From an uncultured Candidatus Saccharibacteria bacterium (GTDB lineage Bacteria; Patescibacteriota; Minisyncoccia; Phycocordibacterales; PALSA-1337), in assembly GCA_964406895.1 (NCBI GenBank), contig CAYOTK010000004.1:26016-90015 (forward strand): 64,000 nt of DNA, written 5' to 3'. This document shows, one piece after another, positions 1,237 to 19,710 of this stretch. How positions within the stretch are numbered: the first letter of the stretch is position 1; every line of letters begins with the position of its first letter. The notes under the pieces are model-generated. The model did no database searches and had not been told where the DNA came from. It saw only the letters and a list, made by a program, of their open reading frames with translations. Both the position numbers and the translations under genes were made by a program.

Positions 1237-1370
1237 CAATTCAAAGGAATGGCAACTTCCTGATCCTTGATGGACAAATCGTTGCAGAAGCTTCGGAGAA
1301 GTGCTTCGGTTTTACTTCTCCACTTTATTCAACTCACGAATGGTTCGTGGGTTGACTGAGAAAGGTTTTC

Positions 1371-1871: not shown

Positions 1872-2118
1872 CCGACCACTTTACGAACTCAAAATCAGAG
1901 CAACTTTTGTCCTTAGACTCCCCGAACCAGTTCGCGCTGAATTCGTGGAAATCGCGAGGGCAAAGTCTCCTTCGGCGAGTTTTGATCTCGCCCAGTTCGC
2001 CGCGCGAGCACGCGGAATTGTTAGTACGGAAGTCATTGCGATCGCAAAAGCTACGCGTTGGCTCTCAGTGATTCGCCGTGATCATGGCGATCAAGTGTTT
2101 GAACAGATTGTCGCTTAA
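1864..2118 (+). CDS. Ribbon-helix-helix (Arc/MetJ-like) DNA-binding protein
   Basis: The ATG at 1864 overlaps the HD gene stop (ATGGATAA), suggesting translational coupling. N-terminus MDNRPLYELKIRATFVLRLPEPVRAEFVEIARA matches the Arc-type beta-strand/helix signature (..R.P..L...L...A). It is 84 aa. Confidence 0.45.
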   Translation: MDNRPLYELKIRATFVLRLPEPVRAEFVEIARAKSPSASFDLAQFAARARGIVSTEVIAIAKATRWLSVIRRDHGDQVFEQIVA

Positions 2119-2136
2119 CGTGGTAACGGGGGTTTT

Positions 2137-2352
2137 ATGCCAAAGAAAAAAAAGATGCCCAACCGACGGATAAAGGTAAAAGGGTTCACATTGGAAGTAG
2201 TTTCTCCGAAATGTCCTTTTTCCGACGCTACGACGGAGGAGCGAGCAAAGGATCAGGCAGAAATGATTGCCAATGGAGGAATTCATCCTGCATGGTTCTC
2301 GGTTACAGCCGAAGACGTCCAACGCGAGTTAGATAAGGACAAGCTCAATTAG
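2137..2352 (+). CDS. Hypothetical small basic protein
   Basis: 71-aa ORF starting 19 nt after the RHH gene, same strand, with GC-rich codon usage. No recognisable motif. Confidence 0.3.
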   Translation: MPKKKKMPNRRIKVKGFTLEVVSPKCPFSDATTEERAKDQAEMIANGGIHPAWFSVTAEDVQRELDKDKLN

Positions 2353-2387
2353 GAGCACATCGCGCCACAACGCGAACAATTTCAATC

Positions 2388-2420
2388 GGCGAGTTTTTGT
2401 GGAAACTCGCCCACTTTTTT
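2388..2420 (+). terminator. Rho-independent terminator followed by an AT-rich promoter-like patch (to ~2470)
   Basis: GGCGAGUUU / AAACUCGCC stem followed by CACUUUUUU. Then cctataatatttgtttttttaaaattgtagg forms an AT-rich patch inside the otherwise GC-rich island, upstream of the MoxR gene. Confidence 0.45.
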
Positions 2421-2530
2421 GAGCCTATAATATTTGTTTTTTTAAAATTGTAGGCTCTTTGAGTAAACGCCACAAAAATGGCGACGGCTTCAAATAGGTG
2501 CGCCGGAATAAGCACCAGTGGAGAATCACA

Positions 2531-3742
2531 ATGAGTGATATCGTCCAATTGGGGATTGATCTCGCCCCCAAGGTGTCCGCTGTAATGACGGATGTCCTAA
2601 CGCGAAATCTCGGCCGTGAGGCAATTGTGCGGGCAACAATGCTCGCGCTCGTTTCGGGCAGACCGGCGTTTTTCCTGGGCAGTCCTGGGATCAACAAAAC
2701 CGGGACGGTGCAGGACATCGCCCGTCGGGTTGACGGTGCGGTGTTTTTTGACGCGCTCATGCCGACCATCGTGTCGGTTGAGCAACTGTTGGTGGAGAGC
2801 ACCTCCATCGTGGAGTCCCCGATAACTGATGGAGGTAAATCCATCAGCACCAGCGACAAGCTTGGGCGAGCAGCAAACGCGCACATTCTGTTCGCCGACG
2901 AGATTTGGAAAGCAGAACCTCGAGTTTTGCAGACCGTTTTGGACTTGGCGAAAGGCGACGGCGTTCGGCACGAGGGACGGATGATTAAAACCCCGCTTCT
3001 CGCTTTTGTGGCGGCCAGCAATGAGCTGCCGGATTCTGAAGGAAACCTCGGAGCACTGTGGTCACGAATGACCATTCGAGCCGAGGTGAAGTCCCTTGAC
3101 CGGGCCGGAAAAAAAAGCCTGGTCGCGACGCGATTGAACCGGCAACAGGCCGGCAAGTCAGCGCCGACAGGGGCGACTCTGACACTCGCTGAAGTGGAAA
3201 CGCTTCGCGAGGTTCGGCCGTTCGTGGAGGTTGGTGACGATATCGTCGAGATTGTACTCGACCTTTACCAATCGCTCCTTGACGGGGACAACGCCGGGTT
3301 CGCCTGGCTATGGGCCGACGACCGACGGTTCGGTCGTTGCATTGACGTTTTGCAGGCCAGTGCACTCCTTGACGGGAGAGCGCGAGTCGGCAAGCAGGAC
3401 CTTCGGGTTCTGGAGTTCTTGCTCTGGGACACCCCCGAGCAGATCCCCGTCGTCAAAAGCAAAATCGCCCCGCTCTGTCGGACACCACTGTCCGACGCGC
3501 AGGAGCTCGTAGACACACTCTTCGCTCCAGCGGGAGTGGTGGCGGAAGCGCTGGCTGGCGATCGGAACAAGATTGTTCCGGCCATCACCCAGTTTGAGGA
3601 GGCTGAGAAGGAACTCAGCCGGCTCGCGGGTGAGGCGAGTGGAACGGAAAAGGAGCAGATCGGCACGCTCCTCGCCAAAATTGCCGAGGAAAAACAGAAC
3701 GCGGTGGCGATCATACTTGGCGCCAAGCGTTGGAAAAAGTAG
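2531..3742 (+). CDS. MoxR-like AAA+ ATPase with atypical Walker A
   Basis: Start taken at the second ATG (MSDIVQLG), with GGAGA 8 nt upstream. Walker A is LGSPGINKTG (N replaces the conserved second G). Walker B is ILFADEIWKA. The MoxR sensor region DEI.KA.P.....LL....E......G......P..F..ASNELP parallels DEINRA...TQ.ALLEAM.E..V......-....F.VIATQNP. Confidence 0.7.
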   Translation: MSDIVQLGIDLAPKVSAVMTDVLTRNLGREAIVRATMLALVSGRPAFFLGSPGINKTGTVQDIARRVDGAVFFDALMPTIVSVEQLLVESTSIVESPITDGGKSISTSDKLGRAANAHILFADEIWKAEPRVLQTVLDLAKGDGVRHEGRMIKTPLLAFVAASNELPDSEGNLGALWSRMTIRAEVKSLDRAGKKSLVATRLNRQQAGKSAPTGATLTLAEVETLREVRPFVEVGDDIVEIVLDLYQSLLDGDNAGFAWLWADDRRFGRCIDVLQASALLDGRARVGKQDLRVLEFLLWDTPEQIPVVKSKIAPLCRTPLSDAQELVDTLFAPAGVVAEALAGDRNKIVPAITQFEEAEKELSRLAGEASGTEKEQIGTLLAKIAEEKQNAVAIILGAKRWKK

Positions 3743-3754
3743 AAAGGATCGGAA

Positions 3755-5491
3755 ATGCAAACGAAAGCCAGCCCGCTCATGCGGCAGGAGTTGCAGAAAC
3801 TCCTGGTCACGGATGCGGACGCTTTCACGGCGCTCCGCTTCCTGCGTCACCGCGAGCGCACCCCAGCGCTTTCGGAATTGGAAAACCAAGGAGGAAACGA
3901 GGTGCCCGGTTTTGCCGGAGCGCTTTGTGACCTCTACCACTCACTGTGGACGGAGACACCCAAGGTCAAGGAAGAAATTCCGGCTGACCGGCGGTTCTTC
4001 GCGGAGATTCTTCGGGGGGCGCTGGCATCGTCAGCGTTTGATGGTCTCCACGCGCAGACACAGTACTCAGACATCAAGTCGGTACTCGGCACCCTTTCCA
4101 TGGGTGATGCAGTGCTGGCAACGATGTCTCCGGAGGAAAAGAAAAATCTCCAAGACACTGCTAGTGCGCAGAAAACAGCGGATGAAGCCGAGGACGAGGC
4201 CAAACAGGCCGAGAACGAAGCTGATTCTGCTGAAGCACTCGCCCAGATGGTGGAGCAATCCGCCGGACAGGGCGAGAGCAGTGAGGGCGGACAAGAATCA
4301 TCCGGCGATCCTTCGGGAGAAGCCGAGGGTGGTTCTGGAGCGCCCAAATCAGGCAGTCCTTCAGGATCGCCAAGTGGTGGTTCACACGGAGCAGTTAGCG
4401 GAATGACGCCCGATGAAGCGCAGGCACTTGCGAACGAACTCGCTCGACAAGCGAGGGAGGCGCGTGCCAAAGCCAACTCGGCACGCGAAACTGCGAACAG
4501 CGCCAAAGAGGTCGCCGAATCCATCGCCAACCAACTTCTGGGGCAACCCGGAAGCGAGGAGGCGATGGAGAGAGCGAAAGATCTGGCGCGTCGTGGATTA
4601 GCCGCTGCTCAAAAGGCCCAAGCGAAGGTTGAGGAAGTATCCAAGACCATTGACTCGTGGGGGCTTGAGGAAGGCGAGCTCGTCCAGATGGGCATTCCGG
4701 AGGCCATGGGGCTTCTAGAAAAAATGCGCCAGAGCACGGCGCTCAAGAAGTTTGCTCAACTCCTGGGCCGAATCAAAAAGATTGCCGCTCGAAAAGCGGC
4801 GTCCGATGATAAAGCCGATGGAGTGCGAGTCACGAAGCCGGAAACGGGTCATGATATCAAAAGAGCGCTTCCGAGGGAGCTCACTGCTCTCTCGCACCCA
4901 TCGCTTCGTTTCGGCGCACTGACGCGCTGGAGCCGAGGAGAACTCGCTCTTCGGGGCGAGGAATCAAAGAGGAAATTGGGCGAGGGGCCGGTCGTGGTCT
5001 GCGAAGACTCGTCAGGCTCTATGGACGGGGTTAAGCAACAGTGGGCAAAGGCTGTAGTTTTAGCACTGGCCCATTACGCAAAGCTTCGTAACCGATCGTT
5101 CGCGTGGATCATGTTTGACACTGCTATCCAGCGGAGTCGCATTTACACTCGCGGGCGATTAACGCCCAAGGACCTTTTGGAAATCGCCGAGTCACGCTCA
5201 GGAGGTGGGACGAATTTTGAAATCCCCCTTCGCGAAGCCGTCAAAGTGATTCGTGGTGCTGGCCTTAAGAAAGCCGACATTGCGTTCATCACCGACGGGG
5301 ATTGCGCGATTTCGGACGAATTCGTTCGGGAGTTTGGTGGGGTCAAGAAGGCATTGGAAGTCAACGTGTTCGCAGTTCTCTGCGATGTTGGCCATACTGC
5401 CGAGGCGACCATTGCAAAATTCTCGGACAGAATTGAACAGGCTTCATCTTTCAACGAGGATGAAGCGGAACAATTTTTCCAAAAACTCTGA
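3755..5491 (+). CDS. von Willebrand factor A (vWA) domain protein with acidic/coiled-coil N-terminal region
   Basis: Starts 12 nt after MoxR, with AAAGGA upstream. The C-terminal vWA domain has a complete MIDAS: VVVCEDSSGSMDG (DxSxS), SRSGGGTNF (T) and AFITDGD (D). The N-terminal ~380 aa are Ala/Glu/Ser/Gly-rich low-complexity and coiled-coil. Confidence 0.75.
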   Translation: MQTKASPLMRQELQKLLVTDADAFTALRFLRHRERTPALSELENQGGNEVPGFAGALCDLYHSLWTETPKVKEEIPADRRFFAEILRGALASSAFDGLHAQTQYSDIKSVLGTLSMGDAVLATMSPEEKKNLQDTASAQKTADEAEDEAKQAENEADSAEALAQMVEQSAGQGESSEGGQESSGDPSGEAEGGSGAPKSGSPSGSPSGGSHGAVSGMTPDEAQALANELARQAREARAKANSARETANSAKEVAESIANQLLGQPGSEEAMERAKDLARRGLAAAQKAQAKVEEVSKTIDSWGLEEGELVQMGIPEAMGLLEKMRQSTALKKFAQLLGRIKKIAARKAASDDKADGVRVTKPETGHDIKRALPRELTALSHPSLRFGALTRWSRGELALRGEESKRKLGEGPVVVCEDSSGSMDGVKQQWAKAVVLALAHYAKLRNRSFAWIMFDTAIQRSRIYTRGRLTPKDLLEIAESRSGGGTNFEIPLREAVKVIRGAGLKKADIAFITDGDCAISDEFVREFGGVKKALEVNVFAVLCDVGHTAEATIAKFSDRIEQASSFNEDEAEQFFQKL

Positions 5492-5502
5492 AAGAGGAAA
5501 TT

Positions 5503-6156
5503 ATGGAAAATATCGTTGTAACGCTTCGAGCTGACCGGGGCAACAAGTTCGATGAAGACGGTCAGTGTATCGGGACCCATGAAAGGTCAATCGTCTTCAT
5601 GCCACGCGAGGTCAAGCCTGACCAAGTTGTCCGCGTCCGACTCATACCGATCATGGATCGAATGACGGGGAAAGAAAGAGTGGACAAAGGTGGCAGAGTT
5701 ATGTACCGCGCCGAACTCGCACCAGCGGAACTGCCGAGGAAATGCGAGGAAGACATTGCAAGGCAAGCAAAAGCCTTGCGGCAAGGCAAACCCTTTCCGA
5801 AGGATCAAGGCGAGGCACTCGCCAAATCCATATTTGGTAAGCGATTGGAACGTACTGACCACAAGTGGTACTACTTTTTCGCTGATGCCATCTTGGGGTC
5901 GCGGTTTTCACCCGCTGCCCTATTGATCTTAGAGGGGATGCCGATGTCTTCTGGTAGCTCATACGATGAGCTTATGGGGTGGTTGATCGGTAAAACTCGC
6001 TGGGGTTACAACTGGTACCACTTCCGAGAATCAGGAAAGATCGGAAAGGATGAGGTTCCGGAGTTTCCAGAAATAGAGCTCCGGACACTTATCGCGCGCC
6101 TTGAAAAAGGCGAATGGGTCATCGCAGACCTCTTGGTTAAGGAGGAACCGCGATGA
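5503..6156 (+). CDS. Hypothetical protein with TRAM-like (OB-fold) N-terminus; candidate vWA-MoxR-associated partner
   Basis: Starts 11 nt after the vWA gene. N-terminus VVTLRADRGNKFDEDGQCIGTHERSIVFMPREVKPDQVVRVRLIPI resembles the TRAM pattern (G.G.....g.vvFV....PGE.V.v.I). The rest is unassigned. Confidence 0.4.
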   Translation: MENIVVTLRADRGNKFDEDGQCIGTHERSIVFMPREVKPDQVVRVRLIPIMDRMTGKERVDKGGRVMYRAELAPAELPRKCEEDIARQAKALRQGKPFPKDQGEALAKSIFGKRLERTDHKWYYFFADAILGSRFSPAALLILEGMPMSSGSSYDELMGWLIGKTRWGYNWYHFRESGKIGKDEVPEFPEIELRTLIARLEKGEWVIADLLVKEEPR

Positions 6157-6191
6157 AAGGTTTTTGGTGCTGCAACACCAGTGGTTAAACC

Positions 6192-6235
6192 GGACGAATT
6201 TTTGCAGAAATTCGTCCACTTTATTCAATTCATAA
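6192..6235 (+). terminator. Hairpin after the TRAM-like gene (possible terminator)
   Basis: GGACGAAUUU / AAAUUCGUCC 10-bp stem, followed by ACUUUAUUCAAUUC, which is only moderately U-rich. Confidence 0.35.
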
Positions 6236-6327
6236 CTTCGGTTACGGATTGATAGAGTTTCAGCTCGAACCGCGTCCGCAGGCGCAACAATTTGCGGAAA
6301 AATTGCCCTTGAAAGGAGGGCTAACAG

Positions 6328-6774
6328 ATGAATTACAAAATCATCCCCGGATCCGTCGGGGTCCGGAAGTCGTTTCAGGTTACCTGCGGACTGCGCGTCG
6401 GGTACGACGCAGCCGCGGTGACTCACACCGGCGAGGAGGCCGTCGAGTCCGTCCTCGAACAATTGAAGTTCCGTGCGGCTGCGGGACTGCCGTACCTAAC
6501 CGGTACAATCACAACCGGAGAGGTCGTGTATGCATGGTCGGATGGGCCGGGCAAGGCCGGCGGCGGGCACGAGCCCGTCATCCGGTACGAGGGAGAAGTC
6601 AACCCCCTGTACAACAAGAATCTTCTCGAGAATCACGACGAGGTCGTCGCGATCTTGAACGAGCTCGGCATCGCCCTCGGAGCGGCGCTCGGGCAAACGC
6701 GGATCTACCTGGCCTACGACGGCCAGACGTGGATCCTCGAGGCGGAGAAGGCGGTTACCCCGACGGGTAACTAA
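6328..6774 (+). CDS. Hypothetical protein
   Basis: 148-aa ORF on the same strand within the island, with GGAGGG upstream. No recognisable motif. Confidence 0.35.
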   Translation: MNYKIIPGSVGVRKSFQVTCGLRVGYDAAAVTHTGEEAVESVLEQLKFRAAAGLPYLTGTITTGEVVYAWSDGPGKAGGGHEPVIRYEGEVNPLYNKNLLENHDEVVAILNELGIALGAALGQTRIYLAYDGQTWILEAEKAVTPTGN

Positions 6775-7005
6775 TTTCTCCAAAGGTTGTGTGAACCTTC
6801 AAAACATTCTGCGTCCCGCGTGGCGCAAAAAAATTTGGTTAACGGTGAGTGTATGCGGACACCCACAAAACTTTCAGCACCGGTCGGGTTGATCGGTGCT
6901 GGACTTTATTGAGTCCGTCCGCTTTTAGCGGGTTGATTCAAAAAGTTAAAGACAGCGACGAGAGTCGCCCGAGCCAGTCGGGTACTGGCATGAAAGGATA
7001 GCGGA

Positions 7006-8715
7006 ATGAAAAATATCCGCCGAGTAGTGGTTTGCGGACCCCCGCATTCGGGAAAGTCTGTGTTCCTAGCCAATCTCCAACGGCTATTGCCGGTTGAGCA
7101 TCACATGCTCATTTTCGGCGCTCCCGACGGTGAGTGGCATTGGAGCAACGAGGCCAACCAGAGCCTCGTCAAAAACCTGCGGGAAAAGAAAGGCTTCTCG
7201 CAGGACTGGTGCCGTCAAATCGTAACAGCGATCCAGAGTGCCGATCAGAAATTGGTACTCGTGGATACGGGTGGCAAGCGATTGCCACCGAACGATGAGA
7301 TCTTCTCGTCGTGCGATGGTTTCATCATTATTTCCTCATCGCCGGAGGAAATGATTGAGTGGCGGAAGTTCGGCGAGAGTTTCGGATGCCAGTGCTTGGC
7401 CGAGCTTGACTCGGTTTTGCATGGAACGTCAGAGCTCTATCCAGACCGCAAGGACGGCATCATCCGCGGTCAGATATGCGGTCTCGAGCGCGGGAAGACC
7501 ATTGAGTCGCCTGTGATGGACGCGGTGGCCAGTCGGCTTTGCGAAGTCATCAAAGCTAACGCTGAAATGACCAAGGCCGAACTTCTCGCCAACATCAATG
7601 GCGTGAAGTTGGTAGACCATCTGGGAATCACAGATCGCTCGGATCCGTATCTCGGAGTGAGGCCCTGGCACACGGCTCCTGCACTCAAACTCACGGCCGT
7701 GGCGCGCCGACTGGAAATCGTGCGAATCTGGAATGTCCGCACAAGTTTCCTGTCCTGCGCCTTCGCCTCGATGCTCCCAGGAAAAGTCCAGCTCTTCGGC
7801 GTGTCCGAGGGGTATGTGGAATTACCTGAAGTCGTTCCGGCTGGGAACGCTTCCGGCGATGGGGTGGAATGGGAAGTTACCGAACTGGCCGAGTATACCT
7901 TAGTGGAATTCCGCAAAACACGATTCTTCACTAAGGAACTGCTGGCGAGCGTGGTACCGCCCGTAGTCAATTCTCGCAAGGGGGTTGTGCTGTCTACGGA
8001 CGGTCCGCCCATCTGGCTAGACGCGACGATCGCAAGGTCGTATGCAAAAGCTGGCGCACCATGGATTGCTGTCTTCGTTCCGGTTGAGTCCGGACGAGTC
8101 CAGCCGTCTTTGGACGGCCAGAAATGGAGTGATGTGCACCCACCAGACGGACCGTGCGTGATAATTTACGGTCCGGAAAATCGGCTGGGAGAAATCATTC
8201 CCGTGCCGATTGCCCTGCTTAAATGGCAAGGGGGTGGACGTAAGTGGCGACTCGGGTCGGGCGAGCCAGTCGTGGATCGACAGAACAGCCACCTTGCCAC
8301 GCACGGCACGGTTTTGCCGTTCGTGGGTGAAGCCTTGCTCCAGATTCAATCCGGAGGACAAGACTTCATCGCCGAAGAAGTAGGTTTTGGCGAAGCCATC
8401 GGGCAGACGATTTGTGTCGCCACCCGCGAGGATGACGACATCGTTTTCGCCCAGCGGCCAAACCGAGCCGGACTCACACGGTTCGTGAAAGGTCGCGAGC
8501 CGGAGTCGTGCTCGACGGTTGTGGTTTGTCTAAAGCGAGCGCGGGAGGGCGGATACATCCTCCTTACTGCGTACATTGGTAGACGCACACCGGCCGAACC
8601 GTGGGACATGGAATGGGCAACGGATCAGTCCGTGCCTTTCTGGAATTCCCATGCTCTGATTTGGGGGCACGAATCAACAATACCAGGAACTGAAACGAAG
8701 GTTTGTTCTTGGTGA
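7006..8715 (+). CDS. P-loop GTPase-like protein, paralog B
   Basis: G1 is VVVCGPPHSGKS and G3-like is LVLVDTGGK. The N-terminal domain and a C-terminal block (GPPIWLDATIARSYAKAGAPWIAVFVPVESGRVQ...GQKWSDVH) are paralogous to ORF 1..1236. An additional ~170-aa C-terminal extension is present. Confidence 0.65.
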   Translation: MKNIRRVVVCGPPHSGKSVFLANLQRLLPVEHHMLIFGAPDGEWHWSNEANQSLVKNLREKKGFSQDWCRQIVTAIQSADQKLVLVDTGGKRLPPNDEIFSSCDGFIIISSSPEEMIEWRKFGESFGCQCLAELDSVLHGTSELYPDRKDGIIRGQICGLERGKTIESPVMDAVASRLCEVIKANAEMTKAELLANINGVKLVDHLGITDRSDPYLGVRPWHTAPALKLTAVARRLEIVRIWNVRTSFLSCAFASMLPGKVQLFGVSEGYVELPEVVPAGNASGDGVEWEVTELAEYTLVEFRKTRFFTKELLASVVPPVVNSRKGVVLSTDGPPIWLDATIARSYAKAGAPWIAVFVPVESGRVQPSLDGQKWSDVHPPDGPCVIIYGPENRLGEIIPVPIALLKWQGGGRKWRLGSGEPVVDRQNSHLATHGTVLPFVGEALLQIQSGGQDFIAEEVGFGEAIGQTICVATREDDDIVFAQRPNRAGLTRFVKGREPESCSTVVVCLKRAREGGYILLTAYIGRRTPAEPWDMEWATDQSVPFWNSHALIWGHESTIPGTETKVCSW

Positions 8716-9295
8716 AAAAAGTGTTAGAAAGTGCACCCAAAAAACTTTCCTCCGCTACAGAGCGTTGTGGCAAACATACGCATATGTAATTGTTCTTTTG
8801 GTCAACGGTAGTTCTGATGCGTCAGGGTTACCACAACAAAATTCCCAGCACCGCCTTGGTCGGTGGCGCTGGACTCAATTGAGTTCATGATTTTAGAGGA
8901 TCGTGAATTCATAGAGTATTACGCAGTGAAATAAGCATTAAAACAAAAAGAAGGCCCCATAAAGCTATAGGCCAGCATGACGGAATCAGATCAGGAAAAA
9001 GTGCGAGTGATTGCAAAATCTCTCTCCTCTAACCCTTCGACAAGCTCAGGATTATCCCGAGCAAAGTCGAGGGACAAACACGATTTCTTGGTTTGTCATC
9101 CAGTCGTTATGACCTGTAGCTTTATGGGGCTTTTTCATAATTCAAGACAATATACATTGCCACAATGTCAACATGGTTATTAGGTTGCTTAAAATATGGC
9201 TTATTATATAATTGATGCATGGTTCGAAACTCGATCCACCTTCACACTAGTGAATGGTAGGCCGAGACCATTTATTAGCATTAACAATAAATATA

Positions 9296-9568
9296 ATGAA
9301 CAAAGCAAGCATTGTAGAAGCAGTTCATGCAGTTCTCGGTGGAACAAAGGTTCAGGCCGAGCAAGCAGTAGAAGCAGTGATCAACAGTGTCATTGATTCT
9401 CTCAAGAAGGGTGAGGAGGTCTCAATCGCAGGTCTCGGCATCTTCTCGGTCAAACAGCGTGCAGCACGCGAGGCTCGTAACCCAAGGACAGGTGAATCCA
9501 TAAAGGTTCCTGCCATGAAGGTTCCTAAGTTCCGCGCCGCAAAGGCATTGAAGGATGCAGTAAAATAA
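9296..9568 (+). CDS. hup: HU family nucleoid DNA-binding protein
   Basis: MNKASIVEAVHAVLGGTKVQAEQAVEAVINSVIDSLKKGEEVSIAGLGIFSVKQRAAREARNPRTGESIKVPAMKVPKFRAAKALKDAV matches the HU/IHF signature (GFG.F.....R.GRNP.TGE...IPA...P.F.AGK.LKD). Start taken at the internal ATG (MNKAS). Confidence 0.85.
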   Translation: MNKASIVEAVHAVLGGTKVQAEQAVEAVINSVIDSLKKGEEVSIAGLGIFSVKQRAAREARNPRTGESIKVPAMKVPKFRAAKALKDAVK

Positions 9569-11039: not shown

Positions 11040-11214
11040 AAGTTATATTTCTACTACTCACTTTTTCTACAAAATTTATTACAATACATTCATGACCTAA
11101 TAAATCTCTTATGAGAATGATCTGAAAAAATCTTAACACCGGAACAAATCAGTAGTGCCTGCACCGAGCGAGGAACAAACCCTCATCTTAGGCACAAACT
11201 TCAACGAATCGAGG

Positions 11215-11285
11215 TGCGGGCAGGGAGAATCGAACTCCCGTCTACACATTGGAAGTGTGTTATTCTACCACTAAACCATGCCCGC
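11215..11285 (-). tRNA. tRNA-Gly (anticodon UCC)
   Basis: The reverse complement reads GCGGGCAUGGUUUAGUGGUAGAAUAACACACUUCCAAUGUGUAGACGGGAGUUCGAUUCUCCCUGCCCGCA. It has a 7-bp acceptor, a GUUU/GAAU D-stem, an ACACA/UGUGU anticodon stem with loop CUUCCAA, and T-arm GGGAG-UUCGAUU-CUCCC. CC is encoded after the discriminator but the final A is not. Confidence 0.8.
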
Positions 11286-12348: not shown

Positions 12349-12692
12349 AAATGTCCTGACTTTTAAACTTGAATAATAATAGTACGGCCCAAATTAGCCA
12401 CATTCACAGTATTCACAAATAATAGGACCAAAAAACACGAATATTAGCCATATTTCCTGTCTTTTATCACCACTATTAACAGACTTATCCACAGTTTGTC
12501 CTTTCAGCCCACGAATTTAAGCCGTATTTATCCGACTTATATGTGTATAAAGTACTGTCGTTTATACTTTACAATTCGTACTAATATTCCGCTCTAATAA
12601 AGCATTGTCTAACAAAAAACTACACACTTATTGTGCCTGCACCGAGCGAGGTGCTAAATCGAAATTATTTACTAATCACGAAAAAATTGAGG

Positions 12693-12763
12693 TGCGGGTA
12701 GGGAGAATCGAACTCCCACCTCGTCCTTGGCAAGGACGCGTCCTACCACTAAACGATACCCGC
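12693..12763 (-). tRNA. tRNA-Gly (anticodon GCC)
   Basis: The reverse complement reads GCGGGUAUCGUUUAGUGGUAGGACGCGUCCUUGCCAAGGACGAGGUGGGAGUUCGAUUCUCCCUACCCGCA. Anticodon loop is UUGCCAA. It is a paralog of the tRNA-Gly(UCC) and shares part of its 3' flank. Confidence 0.8.
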
Positions 12764-13001
12764 GGATTTCAACAAAAGGCATTATAGCCTATAATTTCAA
12801 AATTTGAAAGTTTTTACAAAACACTCTTGCTTCGCCAAAGGCTTCGCAAGACGAGTGCGTTTTTATAACTGTCCTACTACGCTCCTCACTCCGTTCGGAG
12901 CTTCGTAGGACTGCTTCGCGAAAGTGTATTATTGAGAATGCAATTAAACAAGTACTTGTACTGCGAAGCGACCCCAGCGATTAGCTGGGGTCGCGAAGCA
13001 G

Positions 13002-13075
13002 TACGCCCGGCAGGACTCGAACCTGCAACCCCTTGGTTCGAAGCCAAGTACTCTATCCAATTGAGCTACGGGCGC
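13002..13075 (-). tRNA. tRNA-Arg (anticodon UCG)
   Basis: The reverse complement reads GCGCCCGUAGCUCAAUUGGAUAGAGUACUUGGCUUCGAACCAAGGGGUUGCAGGUUCGAGUCCUGCCGGGCGUA. Anticodon loop is CUUCGAA, T-arm is GCAGG-UUCGAGU-CCUGC, with a G1-U72 wobble. CCA is not encoded. Confidence 0.7.
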
Positions 13076-13139
13076 GCATTGACATCATACCCTACTTGCA
13101 GTATTTGTGAAGTACTAAAATTAGTATATACTTGATTAC

Positions 13140-14609
13140 ATGATAATACCGAGTGAAATAAGCATAATCCTTGAAACGATCCGCAAATCCGGCCATGAAG
13201 CATATCTAGTCGGGGGTTGTGTTCGAGATATATTCCTCGGAAGAAAGCCAAAAGATTGGGACATAACAACGAATGCCAAGCCAGAAGAAATCCAGAAACT
13301 GTTTACAAAAACCGTGTATGAGAATATATACGGTACTGTAGCAGTAATAAACGAGGAAACTCTTGATGACACTCTAAGACAGGTAGAAATAACTCCCTAT
13401 CGACTAGAATCAATATATTCAGACAGCAGACACCCTGATCACGTAATATTTAGTGAGGAAATTGAAGATGATCTGAAAAGAAGAGACTTTACTATCAATT
13501 CCCTAGCTCTCAATGTCTCAGAAGATACAATAAAAGACACCATTGACCTTTTTGGCGGTTTAAAAGATATAAAAGACAAACTTATAAAGACAGTCGGCAA
13601 TCCAGACGATAGATTCACGGAAGATAGCCTTAGAATGATGCGTGCCATAAGACTGTCAGTTGAACTTGATTTCAAAATCGACATAGATACACTAAATTCT
13701 ATAAAGAAGCTAAACAAATCAATAAAACTGATAGCCATTGAGCGTGTAAGGGATGAATTCATAAAAATAATTATGTCTGACAGGCCTAAATTGGGCATTG
13801 AAATGCTGTATTCTACCGGATTATTGCAACATATAGTGCCAGAACTGATAAAAACAATCGGTGTTACACAAAACCAAGCTCATGCATATAATGTCTGGGA
13901 ACACCTGTTATTCAGTCTTCAACACGCTGCAGACAAGAAATGGCCTCTAGAAATAAGGCTTTCTGCCCTATTTCACGATATTTCAAAGCCACAAAAGAAG
14001 GGTCTTTCACGTGAAACAGGGATAATTACATTCTATGGACACGAATTGGCTGGTTCACGTGAAACACAAAAAATACTCGAAAGGCTCAAGTTTTCACGTG
14101 TAACTATAGACAAGATCGCCAAATTAGTGAGATGGCATATGTTCTTCTCGGATACCGAGATGATCACTCTATCGGCTGTTAGACGTATGATCGTTAACGT
14201 GGGACGCGAAAATATATGGGATTTAATGAATTTAAGAGTATGTGACAGAGTTGGCACCGGAAGACCTAAAGAAAATCCTTATAGGTTAAGAAAATACAAA
14301 GCAATGATCGAGGAGGCTCTGAGAGACCCAATCTCAGTTTCTATGCTGAAAATTGATGGAAACACTCTAATGAGTAAGTACAATCTCAAACCTGGTCCAA
14401 TCATAGGTAATATACTAAATGCACTTATGGAAGAGGTTCTAGAAGATCCAAAGCTAAATAATGAAGAATACCTGTTTTCACGTGTAAATGAACTAATATC
14501 TCTATCAGATAGTGAATTAAGAAAATTAGCAGATAAAGGCAAGGAAAAAAGAAATGAATTGGAAGAAAATGAAATAAAAGACATAAGAAATAAGCATCAC
14601 GTTGATTAG
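13140..14609 (+). CDS. cca: CCA-adding tRNA nucleotidyltransferase with C-terminal HD domain
   Basis: N-terminal nucleotidyltransferase motif YLVGGCVRD...DWDI, and an HD-domain region (HD at LFHDISKP). 489 aa. Confidence 0.85.
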   Translation: MIIPSEISIILETIRKSGHEAYLVGGCVRDIFLGRKPKDWDITTNAKPEEIQKLFTKTVYENIYGTVAVINEETLDDTLRQVEITPYRLESIYSDSRHPDHVIFSEEIEDDLKRRDFTINSLALNVSEDTIKDTIDLFGGLKDIKDKLIKTVGNPDDRFTEDSLRMMRAIRLSVELDFKIDIDTLNSIKKLNKSIKLIAIERVRDEFIKIIMSDRPKLGIEMLYSTGLLQHIVPELIKTIGVTQNQAHAYNVWEHLLFSLQHAADKKWPLEIRLSALFHDISKPQKKGLSRETGIITFYGHELAGSRETQKILERLKFSRVTIDKIAKLVRWHMFFSDTEMITLSAVRRMIVNVGRENIWDLMNLRVCDRVGTGRPKENPYRLRKYKAMIEEALRDPISVSMLKIDGNTLMSKYNLKPGPIIGNILNALMEEVLEDPKLNNEEYLFSRVNELISLSDSELRKLADKGKEKRNELEENEIKDIRNKHHVD

Positions 14610-14639
14610 TTTGTATAAAAGACAGAGTTATCCACAGTG

Positions 14640-15075
14640 TGTCCTTTACAGACATTCGTATAAGACATAAAATGTACACCAGATGGTTCGTCAACCGAGG
14701 AAAAAAGTTCAGAAAATATTTCCCATGAAATATCTGAACAAAAAGGACGAACACTGATCTTTGAAGTAAGGTGTGTTTGGGGTAAGGGTAGACCCCATCT
14801 AATTGATCAGTAACCATTAATATTTTTGTGTCGCTCTTTTGCTTGAGGAGCAATGAGAGTGCATGCTGTCATACAACAAAAATAGCCTCCCGACGGGAGA
14901 GCTCTTAAAAAAGACATGCGCACGCTCACCCAAGGAAAAGTCCTGACATCCATCCCTAGTAAGTGGTGTGAAAAGGGGATAAGGGTCTGTGGACCCATCG
15001 TGAGTTACTGACGCGCTTCGAGCCGCGTCCTTCGCATTCAATCTCTAGAGTGCCGACGCGGCTTCTTTTGTTATT
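14640..15075 (+). ncRNA. Candidate structured non-coding RNA in the 750-bp cca/TrmB-like gap (identity unresolved)
   Basis: About 50% GC in an AT-rich context with no credible ORF. Several hairpins (CUCCC-GAC-GGGAG, GGGUC-UGU-GGACCC, GACGCG...CGCGUC). An RNase P P4-like AGGAAAAGUCC motif is present, but its spacing to the following GUGAAAAGGGG element is not RNase-P-like. Ends with GCCG-ACG-CGGC plus UUCUUUUGUUAUUUG. Confidence 0.25.
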
Positions 15076-15361: not shown

Positions 15362-16129
15362 CTACCTATAAAAAACCTGATCCTTAGTTGTCTTCCACAT
15401 CACCTCAAAAAGCTCTTGATGCATCTTTATAGTACTTTTGTTTTCAATCACTATAGCCATAATCGGCATTTCTAACTGATGAATCAGAATCCTCTGTGGA
15501 GTTATAACCATATTTGTTGTTAATTTGGTCTCCGGCGGTAAAGCCCTGGCTTCCATGTTGAAATTCTTCTGAAATTGAAGGATCTTCTTACTTTCTTCAT
15601 TTTCCGGATCAGCAACTAAAATTCTGACACGGATTGGCAGTTTCGACCGCCTATCACGTAAGTCGTCGTAAAAAGCCTTGTCTAAGGCATAAGCCTTCTG
15701 CATACCAGCAATAATCATATAATCCTCTTTAGGCTTGATGTCAGTAAGTAAACTATTATAAACCGATCGAATTCCTTCCATGCCTTCATATATTCTTATT
15801 AAAGTCTCCCCGCCACCCTTATTGTATATATCCATAAAATCTCTTAAGCGGGTCTTCAGTTTGCTTTTCCTTTGTTCCAAAATAATTTCCAGCTTTTCTG
15901 GACTTTCGGCCGCAAATAAACTTTTAAAGCCTCTGAACTCAACTCTAACCAACCCTTTTTCTTTTAAAGCATCGATTACTGTGTATATGGTGGTTCTTTT
16001 TACTCCAGAAGCTCTAGAAATCTTCAAAACTGATGTAGGGCCAAGGGAAATCATGGCAAAATACACGGCCGACTCATGTTCGGATAGGCCAATGTCTTTC
16101 AGAATATCAAAATATTGATTCTTTTCCAT
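15362..16129 (-). CDS. TrmB-like HTH transcriptional regulator
   Basis: N-terminus MEKNQYFDILKDIGLSEHESAVYFAMISLGPTSVLKISRASGVKRTTIYTVIDALKEKGLV is a winged-helix TrmB-family pattern. 255 aa. Confidence 0.55.
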   Translation of the reverse strand: MEKNQYFDILKDIGLSEHESAVYFAMISLGPTSVLKISRASGVKRTTIYTVIDALKEKGLVRVEFRGFKSLFAAESPEKLEIILEQRKSKLKTRLRDFMDIYNKGGGETLIRIYEGMEGIRSVYNSLLTDIKPKEDYMIIAGMQKAYALDKAFYDDLRDRRSKLPIRVRILVADPENEESKKILQFQKNFNMEARALPPETKLTTNMVITPQRILIHQLEMPIMAIVIENKSTIKMHQELFEVMWKTTKDQVFYR

Positions 16130-16312: not shown

Positions 16313-17059
16313 ATGTTGCAAGATAACAATAAGAAAATTCTCTGGTATCGTTTACGAGAAGCAGCGACAATAGGGAGCTCGTTGTTTCTTGTTTTTGGTC
16401 CCACTTTTCTATTTTGTGCAACCATAATTTATGGTTGTGAAAGGCGATATCCGATTGAATTATTCTCTGCCGCATCATGTGTCGTTGTGGCAATAGTAAT
16501 TGTCGGTTTTCTTTTGGCCCTTAGTGACAGTGTGCCGACAGGCAAATGGCTAATTGAAGTTCAGGGCGGAACAATTGTATTGGATAAGGAAACCAATAAA
16601 ATTGTGGAGGTACAGAATAAAAATGTGGTTCTAAGAAAGAGTCACCCAATCTTCAACGAAAAGTATCAATTTCTTACCATAAATCCCTCACAAGAAATTG
16701 GAATTACCATTCACCAATTGAAAGAAAAAAATGTAAACAATATTCATTGCAGGTTGACTCTGAAGATTAAGGAGGTGAATTGTCAAGGCTTTCAAGTCTT
16801 GTTTGACTTTCTAGTACGTAAAAAAATGTGGAAGGTTGACAGCGTTGATGGAGGAAAAACAGAGATCATTTGGCAGAGACCTGTTCGAGGCATGCTCTAT
16901 GATTTCTGCAACACGCATTCATTTCAACTGTCTGAGCTTTTCAACCCAATGAGAGAGGAGCAACAAGAACGGTTCGAAATCATTATGCACAGCTACTTTG
17001 ATCCACTTTTAGACGAATCCGGTATCGAAATCACTAGTTGCCGATTCTCAGTAAGCTGA
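16313..17059 (+). CDS. Hypothetical membrane protein (two N-terminal TM segments)
   Basis: 248-aa ORF with TM segments ATIGSSLFLVFGPTFLFCATIIYG and AASCVVVAIVIVGFLLAL. No known motif. Confidence 0.45.
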   Translation: MLQDNNKKILWYRLREAATIGSSLFLVFGPTFLFCATIIYGCERRYPIELFSAASCVVVAIVIVGFLLALSDSVPTGKWLIEVQGGTIVLDKETNKIVEVQNKNVVLRKSHPIFNEKYQFLTINPSQEIGITIHQLKEKNVNNIHCRLTLKIKEVNCQGFQVLFDFLVRKKMWKVDSVDGGKTEIIWQRPVRGMLYDFCNTHSFQLSELFNPMREEQQERFEIIMHSYFDPLLDESGIEITSCRFSVS

Positions 17060-17148: not shown

Positions 17149-17937
17149 TTACATTATCTCCAACCCTATCGGGCAATGATCTGAGCCCATAACATTGTCT
17201 AAAATTTCAGTTTTCTTAACTAAATCAATCAAACCTTGAGAAATAAAGAAATAATCAATACGCCACCCAACGTTACGATCTCGAGCAAAGGTTTTCATGT
17301 CCCAGTATGTATAAGCATCTTTCAAATCAGGGTGTTGATGGCGGAAAATATCGACATAACCAGATTCGATGACTTTGTCTATCCACGCGCGTTCAATAGG
17401 TAAGAAGCCTGTGTTTTCTTCATTTTCTTTTGGACGAGCAAGATCGATCTCAGTATGAGCAGTATTAACATCCCCACAAAAAATAACTTCGTAACCATTT
17501 TTTCTTTGCTTATTCACATATTTCAAGAATTCATCGTAGAATCTTAATTTGAAATCCAATCGATCAGGCCCACCACCACCGTTAGGGAAGTAGGTGTTGA
17601 TAATAACCAATTTATTCGGCATATTATTCAGGTCATGAAAAAATAGGGCAAGAAAACGACCTTCTTGATCAAGTTCCTCCTTACCAAGTCCATATTCAAC
17701 CTTATTGGGCTCAATTTTCGAATATATAGCGACACCACTATAGCCTTTGCGACCTTTTGAATGGTCGAAATATGCATAATAACCATTTGGATTTCTAACA
17801 CCTTCTTCCAGTTGATCGGGGTGAGCTTTTGTTTCCTGAATACAATAAACATCAGGAGATTCATTTATAAACCAATCAAAACCGCCTTTCTTAACATTTG
17901 CACGAAGGCCATTTAAGTTCCAAGAAATGATTCGCAT
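17149..17937 (-). CDS. xth: Exodeoxyribonuclease III (Xth/AP endonuclease family)
   Basis: MRIISWNLNGLRA start, with NTYFPNGG and GDVNTAHTEID, and the C-terminal SDHCPIGLEIM motif. True start taken at the internal ATG; the longer ORF to 18042 extends into the palindromic repeat. Confidence 0.85.
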   Translation of the reverse strand: MRIISWNLNGLRANVKKGGFDWFINESPDVYCIQETKAHPDQLEEGVRNPNGYYAYFDHSKGRKGYSGVAIYSKIEPNKVEYGLGKEELDQEGRFLALFFHDLNNMPNKLVIINTYFPNGGGGPDRLDFKLRFYDEFLKYVNKQRKNGYEVIFCGDVNTAHTEIDLARPKENEENTGFLPIERAWIDKVIESGYVDIFRHQHPDLKDAYTYWDMKTFARDRNVGWRIDYFFISQGLIDLVKKTEILDNVMGSDHCPIGLEIM

Positions 17938-17966
17938 GGGGAAATTATAACTTAATCCGGAAGGGG

Positions 17967-18134
17967 AAACAAAGCAGGTACAGCATGTACATACTAGTCG
18001 TTGCGAAAACTCACTCCTTAAATTTCTAAGAAAAAGCCTCACGAGGTCATCACGGTTCGGCTTTTTCTAAGAAATTTATAGTCGTTCAAACAGTTCGCAA
18101 CGACTAGTATGTACATGCTGTACCTGCTTTGTTT
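17967..18134. repeat. Palindromic element copy 1: perfect 41-bp inverted repeats flanking an 86-bp conserved core
   Basis: aaacaaagcaggtacagcatgtacatactagtcgttgcgaa at 17967-18007 is the exact reverse complement of 18094-18134. The core at 18008-18093 has its own internal inverted repeat (aaatttctaagaaaaagcc / ggctttttctaagaaattt) and is shared with 20813-20898 and, in reverse orientation, 62079-62167. Confidence 0.7.
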
Positions 18135-18261
18135 TCATCGAACACCACACCCTGCACATGAATTTTTGTGAGCAATCCAAATGAGGTGGTTACGCATGAC
18201 TATTGCATACGCACTTGTTTGCTCACAAAAATTCATGTGCAGGGTGTGGCGTGAAGAAAAA

Positions 18262-19209
18262 CTATTTCTTCTTATTATGAAACTTCTTATGAATATTCCT
18301 AAGCTCACTGTCTGTAACGTGAGTATAAATCTGAGTGGTTCCAATATTTGCATGACCAAGAAGCATTTGCACAGAACGCAAATCGGCACCATTTCTGAGT
18401 AAGTCAGTAGCGAAACTATGACGTATGACGTGTGGAGTAACTTTCTTCGAAATTCCAGCCTTAATAGCATAGTGTTTTATGATTCTTTCAACAGATCTTG
18501 TCGTCAACCTCGAAGCCTCCATATTGTTTTTCTTATTCGAAATCTGAACAAACAAAGCTTCTTCCATGTCATCTCTTTTGTCGAGATATTGCTTCAACCA
18601 TTTTTTGGCTTCATCAGAAAGAAAAACTACCCTTATCTTATCTCCTTTACCTCTGACAGAAAGCTCATCCAGCTTCATGTTGATTTCACGGGGCAGGGCA
18701 CAGAGCTCTGAAACACGCAAACCAGTCGAAAAAAGAAGTTCCATGATGGTTCGATCACGAAGGCCTCTCAATTTCGTTGTGTCGGGTGCATCCAATAATC
18801 GGCCTAATTCCTCGATTGTTATAAGATCCAGCGACCTTTCAGGAACTTTTGCCAATTCTATTCTCTCTGGCGGTAGTGATTTCACGCTCATTCTGGCAAG
18901 ATATTTGAGAAATGCTCTAAGAGCAATGAGATAGTAATTCTGAGTCTTCTTCTTCATGGTACCTGAAGCTAATCCTTTTGTTTTGCTTCCTTCTTGTCGA
19001 TTTAACCATAACCTAAACTCCCTAACCACATTATCTGTTATGTCATTTGGTGATTTCACCTTGGTAAATGATATGAAACGCGTCAAATATCGATCATAAT
19101 TTTCAACAGTCTTGAGTCCGCGACCTTTCTCTATCTCTATGTACTCCAAAAACTGTTGTTTCATGTCTTGAATATTGTGCGACATGAATACATTGTAGCA
19201 ATTATCCAC
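18262..19209 (-). CDS. xerC: Tyrosine site-specific recombinase, XerC/XerD family
   Basis: C-terminal catalytic motifs HVIRHSFATDLLRNGADLRSVQMLLGHANIGTTQIYTHV (R..H..R..LLGH...Y). N-terminal SAM-like domain (FLEYIEIEKGRGLKTVENYDRYL). Start could be any of the first three ATGs. Confidence 0.8.
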   Translation of the reverse strand: MDNCYNVFMSHNIQDMKQQFLEYIEIEKGRGLKTVENYDRYLTRFISFTKVKSPNDITDNVVREFRLWLNRQEGSKTKGLASGTMKKKTQNYYLIALRAFLKYLARMSVKSLPPERIELAKVPERSLDLITIEELGRLLDAPDTTKLRGLRDRTIMELLFSTGLRVSELCALPREINMKLDELSVRGKGDKIRVVFLSDEAKKWLKQYLDKRDDMEEALFVQISNKKNNMEASRLTTRSVERIIKHYAIKAGISKKVTPHVIRHSFATDLLRNGADLRSVQMLLGHANIGTTQIYTHVTDSELRNIHKKFHNKKK

Positions 19210-19249
19210 ATTTCAAACACACTTGACAAAAAAATGTGTGGTGGTAGTA

Positions 19250-19710
19250 TCTTACGTCAGATGACCTTTGGTAATGGTGAGGGCGCAGAACACACCACTC
19301 GTGGTGTGCAATACGCTTTGCATCGAAGGGTTGTCTGTGGCCTAACATCGAAAAAAAAGGCCACTATTGGAGGAAAGCCTATGAACAGTCCGCCCTGTGC
19401 GCTTCTCATGCGCACCAATGGAACGACCAAGAGTTCGGCGACATCCCGGGCGACCTGAAGCCCCGACCGGCCAACGGTACGCAGAACATCAACCAAAGAA
19501 AGGGGGTAGCGTGGAACGACTCGCAAAAATAGTCATCGCCCGAATGGTGGTGATTGAATGGCGGGCCAACACGGCCTTCACCTAACCAAACCTAGGGAAC
19601 CACAACAATTTCGCGGCCCTCCCTACCGCCCCGACCAGGCCGGTGAGCTAGTAAGAGCACGTACCCCACGTCGCTCGAGTTGGCTCACCGGCCGAATCTT
19701 TTTATATACC
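19250..19710 (+). ncRNA. GC-rich (~57%) candidate structured RNA (unidentified)
   Basis: A 460-nt non-coding GC island between the Xer gene and rpsO. It ends with an 11-bp stem (GGCCGGUGAGC...GCUCACCGGCC) followed by CGAAUCUUUUUAUAU. Contains a GAGGAAAGCC and a GUAAGAGCAC motif, and CGCAAAAAUAGUC resembling the tmRNA resume-codon context. No tRNA-like 3' domain was seen. ORFs in the track here are GC-biased and probably spurious. Confidence 0.3.

Follow-up and report, generated by a model that had tools for sequence, protein, structure and literature searches.

Two short repeats that each carry a perfect DnaA box, TTATCCACA, and that flank a segment with two tRNA genes and cca (the gene for the CCA-adding enzyme) are probably two distinct, separately conserved cis-regulatory modules of Paceibacteria-type Patescibacteria and not the scars of a duplication. 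We analyzed these repeats, referred to as site Y (copy 1) and site X (copy 2), in a stretch of 64,000 nucleotides (nt) from an uncultured Candidatus Saccharibacteria bacterium (GenBank assembly GCA_964406895.1, contig CAYOTK010000004.1, positions 26,016 to 90,015 of the forward strand), which we refer to as the window, and in related loci. As judged from sequence, both modules are built from a high-affinity DnaA box flanked as DnaA prefers, AG-TTATCCACA-G, together with one or more TAAAGGACA/TGTCCTTTA boxes (from here on, GGACA boxes). Site X lies just upstream of the −35 element of a sigma70-like promoter for a predicted non-coding RNA (unit X), and site Y overlaps the −35 element of a putative yraN promoter. 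Very little is known about the control of replication and expression in Patescibacteria (also called CPR, for candidate phyla radiation), which have very few regulators.

Two repeats with perfect DnaA boxes flank two tRNA genes and cca

The repeats, the bracketed genes, and the gene to the left of copy 1 are as follows.

12479-12507, + strand: copy 1, site Y, ACAGAC-TTATCCACA-GTTTGTCCTTTCAG, with its DnaA box at 12485-12493
14622-14651, + strand: copy 2, site X, ACAGAG-TTATCCACA-GTG-TGTCCTTTACAG, with its DnaA box at 14628-14636, which is at about −53 to −45 relative to the predicted transcription start
12691-12763, − strand: tRNA-Gly(GCC) (ARAGORN, Rfam), with site Y ~185 nt downstream of its 3' end
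13001-13075, − strand: tRNA-Arg(TCG) (ARAGORN, Rfam), within the bracketed segment
13140-14609, + strand: cca (Pfam PolyA_pol, PolyA_pol_RNAbd, HD, and tRNA_NucTran2_2), within the bracketed segment
11950-12348, − strand: yraN (UPF0102/PF02021; Pfam), left of copy 1; the putative promoter at site Y reads toward it

Copy 1 reads TTATCCACAGTTTGTCCTTTCAG (12485-12507) and copy 2 reads TTATCCACAGTGTGTCCTTTACAG (14628-14651), both on the + strand of the window. The two differ at one base (T/G at position 12) and by an indel of 1 nt (an A before CAG), which gives 22 matches over 24 gapped columns, and the similarity continues leftward for 6 nt (ACAGAC and ACAGAG). Accordingly, a repeat search aligned 12479-12504 with 14622-14647 (26 nt, 92% identity, 24 of 26 bases), followed by CAG past the 1-nt indel; similarity between the copies stops at ~30 nt. 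The 20-mer TTATCCACAGTNTGTCCTTT, allowing up to 3 mismatches, has two copies only in the 64 kb and none in 100 shuffles. The original prediction had described a pair of 23-bp direct repeats that match at 21 of 23 bases, both start with a perfect DnaA box in the same orientation, and bracket tRNA-Gly, tRNA-Arg and cca. We recovered the pair at the same coordinates, with the boxes, their common orientation, and the bracketed genes as described; the count of matching bases was approximately right.

Perfect copies of TTATCCACA occur four times in the window (12485 and 14628 on the + strand, 19202 on the + strand, and 51616 on the − strand), and boxes with one mismatch lie near copy 1 at 12394 and 12542. 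The G+C content of the window is 37% outside its first ~9 kb. The 23-mer is itself a composite (AGTTATCCACAG + TGTCCTTTA), in which three free bases separate the DnaA-box-sized block AG-TTATCCACA-G from a TGTCCTTTA box that holds the −35 element.

Site X is conserved in fixed geometry to a predicted promoter between cca and an xth-like gene

On the right-hand side of copy 2, ~750 nt without an open reading frame (ORF) precede three genes in the window. The last of these is the one that is conserved among relatives.

15362-16129, − strand: TrmB-like gene, inserted between unit X and the xth-like gene in the window
16313-17059, + strand: orf248, an uncharacterised ORF, inserted in the same interval in the window
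17149-18042, − strand: xth-like Exo_endo_phos gene (Pfam, tblastn synteny), the conserved far neighbour of unit X

We scanned one genome per species (596 Gb, both strands) for the exact 20-mer with its 19 specified bases and found it in 32 species genomes, compared to ~4 expected by chance. Thirty of the 32 are metagenome-assembled genomes of Patescibacteria, with record titles that include Paceibacterota, Parcubacteria, Zambryskibacteria, Taylorbacteria, and generic labels, and the other two contigs (Parvarchaeota and Tokpelaia) are without locus context and look like chance matches. Based on tblastn with the window proteins, the motif in the Patescibacteria loci always lies in the intergenic region between cca and the xth-like gene. 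Two arrangements occur: in one, which includes the window, cca is followed by the motif and ~500 nt of non-coding sequence and then by a convergent xth gene, and in the other, xth is followed by the motif and ~300 nt of non-coding sequence and then by a convergent cca gene. The aligned contexts share the pattern [TAAAGGACA]-N0-12-TTATCCACA-N3-TGTCCTTTACA-...-TAnAAT-N6-7-CAGA, and in most relatives, TAAAGGACA is present 0-12 nt upstream of the DnaA box at X.

Because the genome scan demanded an exact match, we also assembled an unbiased sample of 80 metagenome loci that were fetched by homology to cca alone (54-69% identity) and in which sites were anchored on TGTCCTTTAC only. In this sample, yraN was present in 50 of the 80 loci, and tblastn supported synteny of yraN and xth around cca. 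Anchoring on TGTCCTTTAC gave 63 sites in 55 loci. A DnaA box in the same orientation, with at most one mismatch and at most 30 nt upstream of the anchor, was present at 56 of the 63 sites and in 54 of the 55 loci, compared to 0.5% of random windows. Thirty-seven of these 56 boxes were perfect, and the remainder were 1-mismatch variants (TTATCCCCA, TTGTCCACA, TTTTCCACA, ATATCCACA, and TTATCAACA), which are classic variants of the DnaA box. The box was separated from the anchor by 3-4 nt at 39 sites and by 13-16 nt, one helical turn more, at 14 sites, so that the helical face of the box relative to the −35 is preserved across X sites. Information content was 1.5-2.0 bits in the 9-mer, the positions of which were preselected at up to one mismatch, and in the flanks, which were unbiased, ~1 bit at −2/−1 (AG), 0.6 at +10 (G), and ~0 beyond.

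In the window, the two elements that accompany the box at site X are as follows.

14645-14673, + strand: sigma70-like promoter of unit X, with −35 TTTACA at 14645-14650, a 17-nt spacer, and −10 TAAAAT at 14668-14673 (10 of 12 matches in the promoter scan)
14614-14624, + strand: upstream GACA box TATAAAAGACA, in the opposite orientation to the box that overlaps the −35

The spacer and −10 region of this promoter also contains TATAAGACAT. Among the unbiased X sites, a −10-like hexamer was found 16-18 nt past TTTACA at 49 of 55, compared to 0-4 of 55 at control offsets. A YAGR motif 6-7 nt beyond the −10 in 32 of 55 is suggestive of a start only.

Relative to cca and site Y, the X unit has the inverse orientation in ~44 of the 55 loci, while the orientation of site Y to yraN is kept. 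Because the motif and the non-coding stretch that follows it are inverted together between lineages with their neighbours unmoved, we treat them as one unit. Thus, the direct orientation of X and Y is specific to the subclade of the window.

Site Y is conserved between tRNA-Gly(GCC) and yraN

In all related loci that include yraN, a box lies in the interval from the 3' end of tRNA-Gly(GCC) to the yraN start, invariably on the opposite strand from yraN. Among the cca-fetched metagenome loci with enough upstream sequence, ~24 of 52 have site Y. Its consensus, TGTCCTTTATACAC-ATATCCMCAGAG-TTATCCACAGTTTT, consists of a GGACA box followed by two tandem DnaA boxes; two tandem boxes are usual in the relatives, and the window has one perfect box. 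Read toward yraN, the site contains (T/G)GGATA, a 16- or 17-nt spacer, and TATAAA(GGACA), with a spacing that is constant across relatives. In the window, the corresponding hexamers are TGGATA (12491 to 12486) and GATAAA (12468 to 12463), the latter in the complement of the following element.

12458-12467, + strand: GACA box TGTCTTTTAT, upstream of copy 1, with the −10-like GATAAA in its complement

From this geometry, we suggest a putative yraN promoter with a −35 that site Y overlaps. The sequence ...GTTTGTCCTTT is carried by Y in the window only, and partly in locus L013; it is because of this extension that X and Y resemble a long repeat in the window.

Three further features were observed in this area. 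The motif AGCCAT(A/T)T (in the window TTAGCCACAT, TTAGCCATAT, and TAAGCCGTAT) occurs on the + strand two to three times around site Y (12394-12530) and in most relatives. A gene of the HU/IHF family (9254-9568, + strand) lies ~3 kb from site Y and is of possible interest, as E. coli datA needs IHF. The tRNA-Gly genes at 11207-11285 (UCC) and 12685-12763 (GCC) are 76% identical, and an identical 19-mer, GTGCCTGCACCGAGCGAGG (hairpin GCACC...GGTGC), lies ~40 nt downstream of each (11155-11173 and 12633-12651, respectively); this 19-mer probably serves in 3' processing or in termination. In E. coli, yraN is located 20 nt upstream of diaA, which encodes the DnaA initiator-associating protein, and this adjacency is a weak contextual link of the YraN family to DnaA biology.

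Unit X is a predicted non-coding RNA with a boxA-like leader

The stretch downstream of site X is organized as follows.

14681-15072, + strand: unit X, ~390 nt, a conserved, predicted non-coding transcript between cca and the xth-like gene
14685-14752, + strand: 5' hairpin of unit X with an unpaired CCGAGG
14755-14766, + strand: boxA-like element TGATCTTTGAAG, single-stranded, after the hairpin
15022-15072, + strand: intrinsic terminator, GCCGCGTC...GACGCGGC followed by the T-run TTCTTTTGTT

Unit X (14681-15072) folds better than all 100 of its shuffles (z = −3.37), and among the X units of relatives, terminators are conserved, as are blocks of sequence. The outer stem of the 5' hairpin varies in sequence and yet pairs in most of 16 relatives (GGUUCGUC/GACGAAC, GUUUGUC/GACAGAC, UUCAUC/GAUGAA, and GGUUGAGUC/GACUUUAACC are examples), which suggests compensatory changes; the relatives were compared stem by stem, since large insertions and deletions make MAFFT columns unreliable. 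The hairpin is followed by a single-stranded (A/U)GUUCUUU(G/C)AAA, which is often duplicated, and CCGAGG is unpaired and conserved. In the window, the boxA-like element is followed by GGUGUGUUUGGGG, which is boxC-like.

No match to Rfam 15 was obtained for unit X at the gathering score or at E<=10, the surroundings of copy 1 likewise yielded tRNAs only, and the equivalent regions in 32 related loci had no Rfam match except tRNAs at the gathering score. Comparison of motifs by eye was negative for RNase P RNA, tmRNA, signal recognition particle RNA, and 6S RNA (no CR-I/CR-IV pair, acceptor/T-arm, or helix-8 motif), and ARAGORN found no tmRNA. We found no conserved forward-frame ORF in unit X, and a small protein was rejected since conservation at the peptide level was confined to antisense translations of cca, which is convergent. 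With its own promoter and terminator and no conserved ORF, unit X appears to behave as an independent RNA gene. We therefore predict an expressed non-coding RNA gene of no Rfam family, with a boxA-like leader and a length of ~250-400 nt in relatives.

DnaA is the candidate binder of both sites

The 11-mer GTTATCCACAG, i.e., AG-TTATCCACA-G, is identical to both R1 and R4 of E. coli oriC, and 18 nt of the R4 context, GACAGAGTTATCCACAGT, recur in copy 2. Both copies match the consensus TTATNCACA over 9 bp. Conservation is confined to the 9-mer and its immediate flanks, as expected of the footprint of one DnaA domain IV. The window encodes a DnaA with a domain IV homologous to 1J1V (the structure of E. 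coli domain IV), which keeps RPRQ, S-x-P-x-IG (as SFPSIG), and GGRDHTT..H relative to an E. coli reference sequence.

45748-47094, + strand: dnaA (Pfam), in a locus with DnaA boxes that spans 45662-47320

Upstream of dnaA, there are three direct near-consensus boxes (45670, 45681, and 45700), and the spacer between dnaA and dnaN is AT-rich and has further boxes; dnaA and dnaN follow rnpA-rpmH-yidC in canonical order. Based on these features, the dnaA/dnaN locus (45662-47320) is likely oriC, ~31 kb from the repeats. All boxes at dnaA are imperfect, and those near it also tend to have AG before them. X and Y hold the strongest DnaA boxes of the window. GGACA boxes are 16-fold enriched within 100 nt of a DnaA box. 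The box itself is not dispersed: outside X and Y, TTATCC[AC]CA was observed 6 times in 289 kb of related loci, compared to ~4.4 expected, i.e., at the level of chance, and the repeat has two copies in the window. Thus, the many dispersed copies that would have marked it as a generic repeat were not found in the 64 kb or in these related loci. From these comparisons, we infer that DnaA occupies the two sites, which we regard as rather likely.

The other two perfect boxes in the window have surroundings of their own. The third (19202) lies 12 nt upstream of TTGACA-17-TAGTAT and is followed by ~430 nt of GC-rich sequence (~55%) that ends in a hairpin and T-run (~19640-19705), between a XerC/D-like integrase gene and rpsO. 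The region at 19.2-19.7 kb had no Rfam match at E<=10 and no similar sequence among the related loci, and the stretch at 19202-19700 may be a second unclassified structured RNA. The fourth (51608-51616, − strand) has an X-like geometry (box, 8 nt, TTATTG, 17 nt, TGATAA) and lies within the 3' end of a RuvC-like ORF, upstream of an ORF of 92 aa (51253-51531), highly acidic in composition, and of a PBP1A-like gene (48687-51233). Across the window, GC skew was uninformative.

Candidate parS sites and GGACA boxes are embedded in the cca reading frame

Two palindromes between X and Y differ by one mismatch each from the 16-bp parS consensus tGTTNCACGTGAAACa (PMC7022226).

14003-14018: parS-like palindrome TCTTTCACGTGAAACA, in the cca frame
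14051-14066: parS-like palindrome TGGTTCACGTGAAACA, in the cca frame

The window has no other match to parS at up to 3 mismatches. We found 149 parS-like sites at up to 2 mismatches in 110 related cca loci, compared to ~0.2 expected. In relatives, the site is at the same cca codons, and in other lineages, it lies upstream of yraN or inside unit X. At one of the sites, every gene that encodes GSR(E/V)T writes it GGT-TCA-CGT-GWA-ACN, while elsewhere in those genes, CGT makes up 25% of the Arg codons and TCA 27% of the Ser codons. These data suggest that the palindromes in cca are under selection at the DNA level; based on the match to the consensus, they are candidate centromere sites that ParB would bind. 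Of the window ORFs scanned, none was recognized as a ParB gene.

The coding sequence of cca also contains TAAAGGACA/AAAAGACA boxes at the YKGQ and KDIKDK codons (13520-13590 and 14575-14590 in the window, cca +370 to +415 in relatives). KDIKDK is written AAGGACATAAAGGACAAA in 17 of 19 cca genes of relatives, compared to ~2% expected from the codon use of the same genes. This codon choice therefore suggests that GGACA boxes, too, are maintained inside cca by selection at the DNA level. Altogether, the segment between the DnaA-box sites looks like a DNA-level hub with a centromere and DnaA sites.

Proposed mechanism and alternative explanations

We propose that DnaA, probably with a partner factor that binds the GGACA boxes, would occupy X and Y. 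At X, DnaA at about −50 would be in the position of an activator or a nucleation point for transcription of the X RNA. At Y, DnaA over the −35 would be in an occluding position for yraN. Transcription of the X RNA and yraN would in this way be coupled to DnaA and the replication cycle, and, as the best boxes near the origin, X and Y could also sequester DnaA in the manner of datA-type loci. On this model, the replication cycle of many ultra-small Patescibacteria would be linked to a small RNA and to a nuclease-like gene.

Several observations weigh against this model. GGACA boxes always accompany the DnaA box at these sites, yet they are absent from the dnaA/oriC region of the window, and likely point to a second protein, which could also read the TTATCCACAG part. 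Each site has only one or two DnaA boxes, fewer than datA or the DnaA-box clusters of B. subtilis. The putative yraN promoter has a weak −35 (TGGATA) and, in the window, a weak −10 (GATAAA). In many relatives, the box at Y is TTATCCCCA, which changes A7, a position that is normally important for DnaA in the TTATNCACA consensus. Moreover, three direct units in 11-nt phase (TATCCACAGTn, TGTCCTTTACA, and TGTCCTTTATA) would suit an activator of the OmpR/PhoB type. The composite motif could instead be the operator of a lineage-specific factor, either a winged-helix/OmpR-like protein that reads the 11-nt-phased T(A/G)TCC or the TrmB-like neighbour, with a coincidental likeness to the DnaA box. In favour of such an operator are the constancy of the GGACA boxes, their enrichment near the box together with their lack at dnaA/oriC, the phased TATCC, TGTCC, and TGTCC units, the frequency of TTATCCCCA at Y, and the palindromic versions that occur at X of locus L021 and Y of locus L018; in addition, X has a TrmB-like gene as its neighbour in 8 of the 80 cca-fetched loci as well as in the window. 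As a dedicated regulator, the TrmB-like neighbour was rejected since it is present in only ~10% of loci. The 11-nt phasing of the units would suit a DnaA oligomer that spreads from a strong site as well as an OmpR-type activator. However, the extent of the conserved block is exactly that of a DnaA box with the flanks of E. coli R1/R4, the three unconstrained nt before TGTCC point to two separable elements, the variants seen are those of DnaA boxes, and the window encodes a DnaA with intact DNA-contact residues. We therefore consider the operator of another factor possible but on the whole unlikely.

The remaining alternatives concern the DNA itself. The sites might act mainly at the DNA level, as a datA/DARS-like control or titration locus or as DnaA-binding flanks of the parS centromere in cca, a possibility that is compatible with the model above and to which we give a clear minority of our confidence. 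It would account for the strength of the X and Y boxes relative to the imperfect boxes at dnaA and for the location of site Y downstream of tRNA-Gly(GCC), as in E. coli datA, where tRNA read-through modulates function (PMC10950094). Also in line with it are the two near-perfect parS between X and Y, with the large excess of such sites in relatives, and the HU/IHF-family gene. Mera and colleagues are said to have reported in 2014 that DnaA binds at the parS region of Caulobacter. A pure titration function, however, would not require the strict position and helical phase of the box relative to promoter hexamers, which a transcriptional role predicts, and the sites have one or two boxes and no identified IHF site. 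Perfect boxes, the tandem boxes at Y, and the nearby parS might even be taken to indicate that the X/Y region is the true origin or a second, bipartite one. This is very improbable given the canonical rnpA-rpmH and dnaA-dnaN locus 31 kb away with its three direct boxes and AT-rich boxed spacer, the phasing of the X and Y boxes to promoter hexamers, and the finding of neither an AT-rich unwinding element nor a box cluster at X or Y. The original prediction offered two readings of the repeats: regulatory or titration sites for DnaA outside oriC, and ends of a duplicated or inserted segment. The former is now the leading explanation, based on the conserved 9-mer with R1/R4 flanks and the oriC-like region ~31 kb away, with DnaA binding as its inferred part. 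The latter envisages att-like ends or a target-site duplication around tRNA-Gly, tRNA-Arg, and cca, and in the window, the copies are indeed in the same orientation, 2.1 kb apart, and 92% identical over 26 nt beside tRNA genes. It was ruled out because the bracketed genes are core genes with synteny conserved in all relatives, the two copies have separate orthologues that differ in their flanks, and no integrase or transposase lies within the segment; the inversion of X relative to Y in most relatives and the end of similarity at ~30 nt also speak against it, leaving it with next to no probability.

Beyond these alternatives, DnaA-responsive modules and centromere sites can be combined in a wider scheme, which we put forward only tentatively. 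Here, the arrangement of yraN, site Y, tRNA-Gly, tRNA-Arg, cca with its parS and GGACA boxes, site X, and the X RNA would form a chromosome-maintenance hub of Paceibacteria, in which a centromere embedded in cca is flanked by datA/DARS-like DnaA sites and a hitherto undescribed, DnaA-controlled RNA with a Nus/boxA-type leader feeds back on replication, segregation, or tRNA supply.

Other features of the window

Positions 1-9000 of the window have a G+C content of 55%, compared to 37% elsewhere, and encode two Csx3-domain proteins (25-1236 and 7006-8715), a MoxR-type AAA+ protein (2498-3742), and a vWA protein (3755-5491). No sequence similar to this island was found in the related loci, and it reflects either horizontal acquisition of a defence-like island or a mis-join of the assembly. 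Two inverted repeats lie between the xth-like and integrase genes, one at 17967-18134 with 41-nt arms (100%) and an 86-nt spacer that holds a 20-nt inverted repeat, and one at 18142-18252 with 34-nt arms (97%) and a 43-nt spacer. A strong hairpin with 21-nt arms (GTACTGCGAAGCGACCCCAGC and GCTGGGGTCGCGAAGCAGTAC; 12958-13004) abuts the 3' end of tRNA-Arg, and the region between the two tRNAs (12800-12990) is GC-rich with repeated CTTCGC/GCGAAG words.

Comparison with known systems

In the literature on DnaA boxes, parS, and structured RNA of the CPR, and on the motif itself, we found no account of the element. Unit X resembles the antitermination leader of rrn operons (boxB-boxA-boxC) in that a hairpin is followed by a single-stranded boxA-like element and the boxC-like GGUGUGUUUGGGG. 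The comparison is with the E. coli rrn boxA, GCTCTTTAACAA or GCUCUUUAACAA. In contrast to rrn leaders, unit X is not followed by rRNA, is ~250-400 nt long, and has its own terminator. No boxA-like motif was found upstream of the 23S rRNA gene of locus L016, the sole Patescibacteria rRNA compared.

Compared to chromosomal parS/ParB centromeres, the locus has near-consensus parS sites between the DnaA-box sites and ~31 kb from dnaA; here, however, parS is embedded in the frame of cca, and its link to the DnaA boxes is positional only. With R1 and R4 of E. coli oriC, the sites share the same 11-mer, and copy 2 the 18 nt of R4 context, but X and Y are not in an origin and have neither a DNA unwinding element nor an array of low-affinity sites with known function. 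The identity of the flanks may reflect a shared preference of DnaA or chance.

Among loci outside oriC, the nearest positional analogue of site Y appears to be E. coli datA, a cluster of DnaA boxes directly downstream of the glyV-X-Y tRNA-Gly(GCC) operon, the function of which is modulated by tRNA read-through (PMC10950094). Site Y is also located outside oriC and downstream of tRNA-Gly(GCC), in every relative examined, and tRNA read-through could cross both. However, datA has a box cluster, an essential IHF site, and no promoter element, and promotes hydrolysis of DnaA-ATP, whereas site Y combines one or two boxes with GGACA boxes, has no identified IHF site, and stays in constant phase to the promoter-like hexamers of yraN. 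We therefore do not classify site Y as datA: the location is datA-like, but the box cluster is lacking and no IHF site was identified, and datA/DARS-type loci have several boxes in a defined arrangement plus IHF (and Fis) sites.

For both sites, the nearest functional analogue would be the transcriptional control that DnaA exerts through boxes in promoters. Promoters controlled by DnaA include those of dnaA and nrdAB in E. coli and those of dnaA, sda, and intergenic DnaA-box clusters in B. subtilis. As in these cases, a high-affinity box lies just upstream of the −35 (X) or over it (Y), which would imply activation or repression that depends on the level or nucleotide state of DnaA. The differences are in the targets, here a predicted non-coding RNA and yraN, in the class-wide conservation, and in the constant presence of the TAAAGGACA motif. 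DnaA boxes outside oriC are thus already known; those described here appear to be wired into promoters, clade-wide, and linked to a previously undescribed predicted RNA. If the model is correct, a pair of E. coli-type high-affinity DnaA sites, conserved at the scale of a phylum, is wired into two promoters beside tRNA genes, and the role of DnaA as a regulator, possibly with a datA-like control tied to transcription of tRNA-Gly, would be ancient and kept in minimal genomes. The locus also points to a widely conserved new non-coding RNA, a factor that binds TAAAGGACA, and a parS centromere in the frame of a housekeeping gene.

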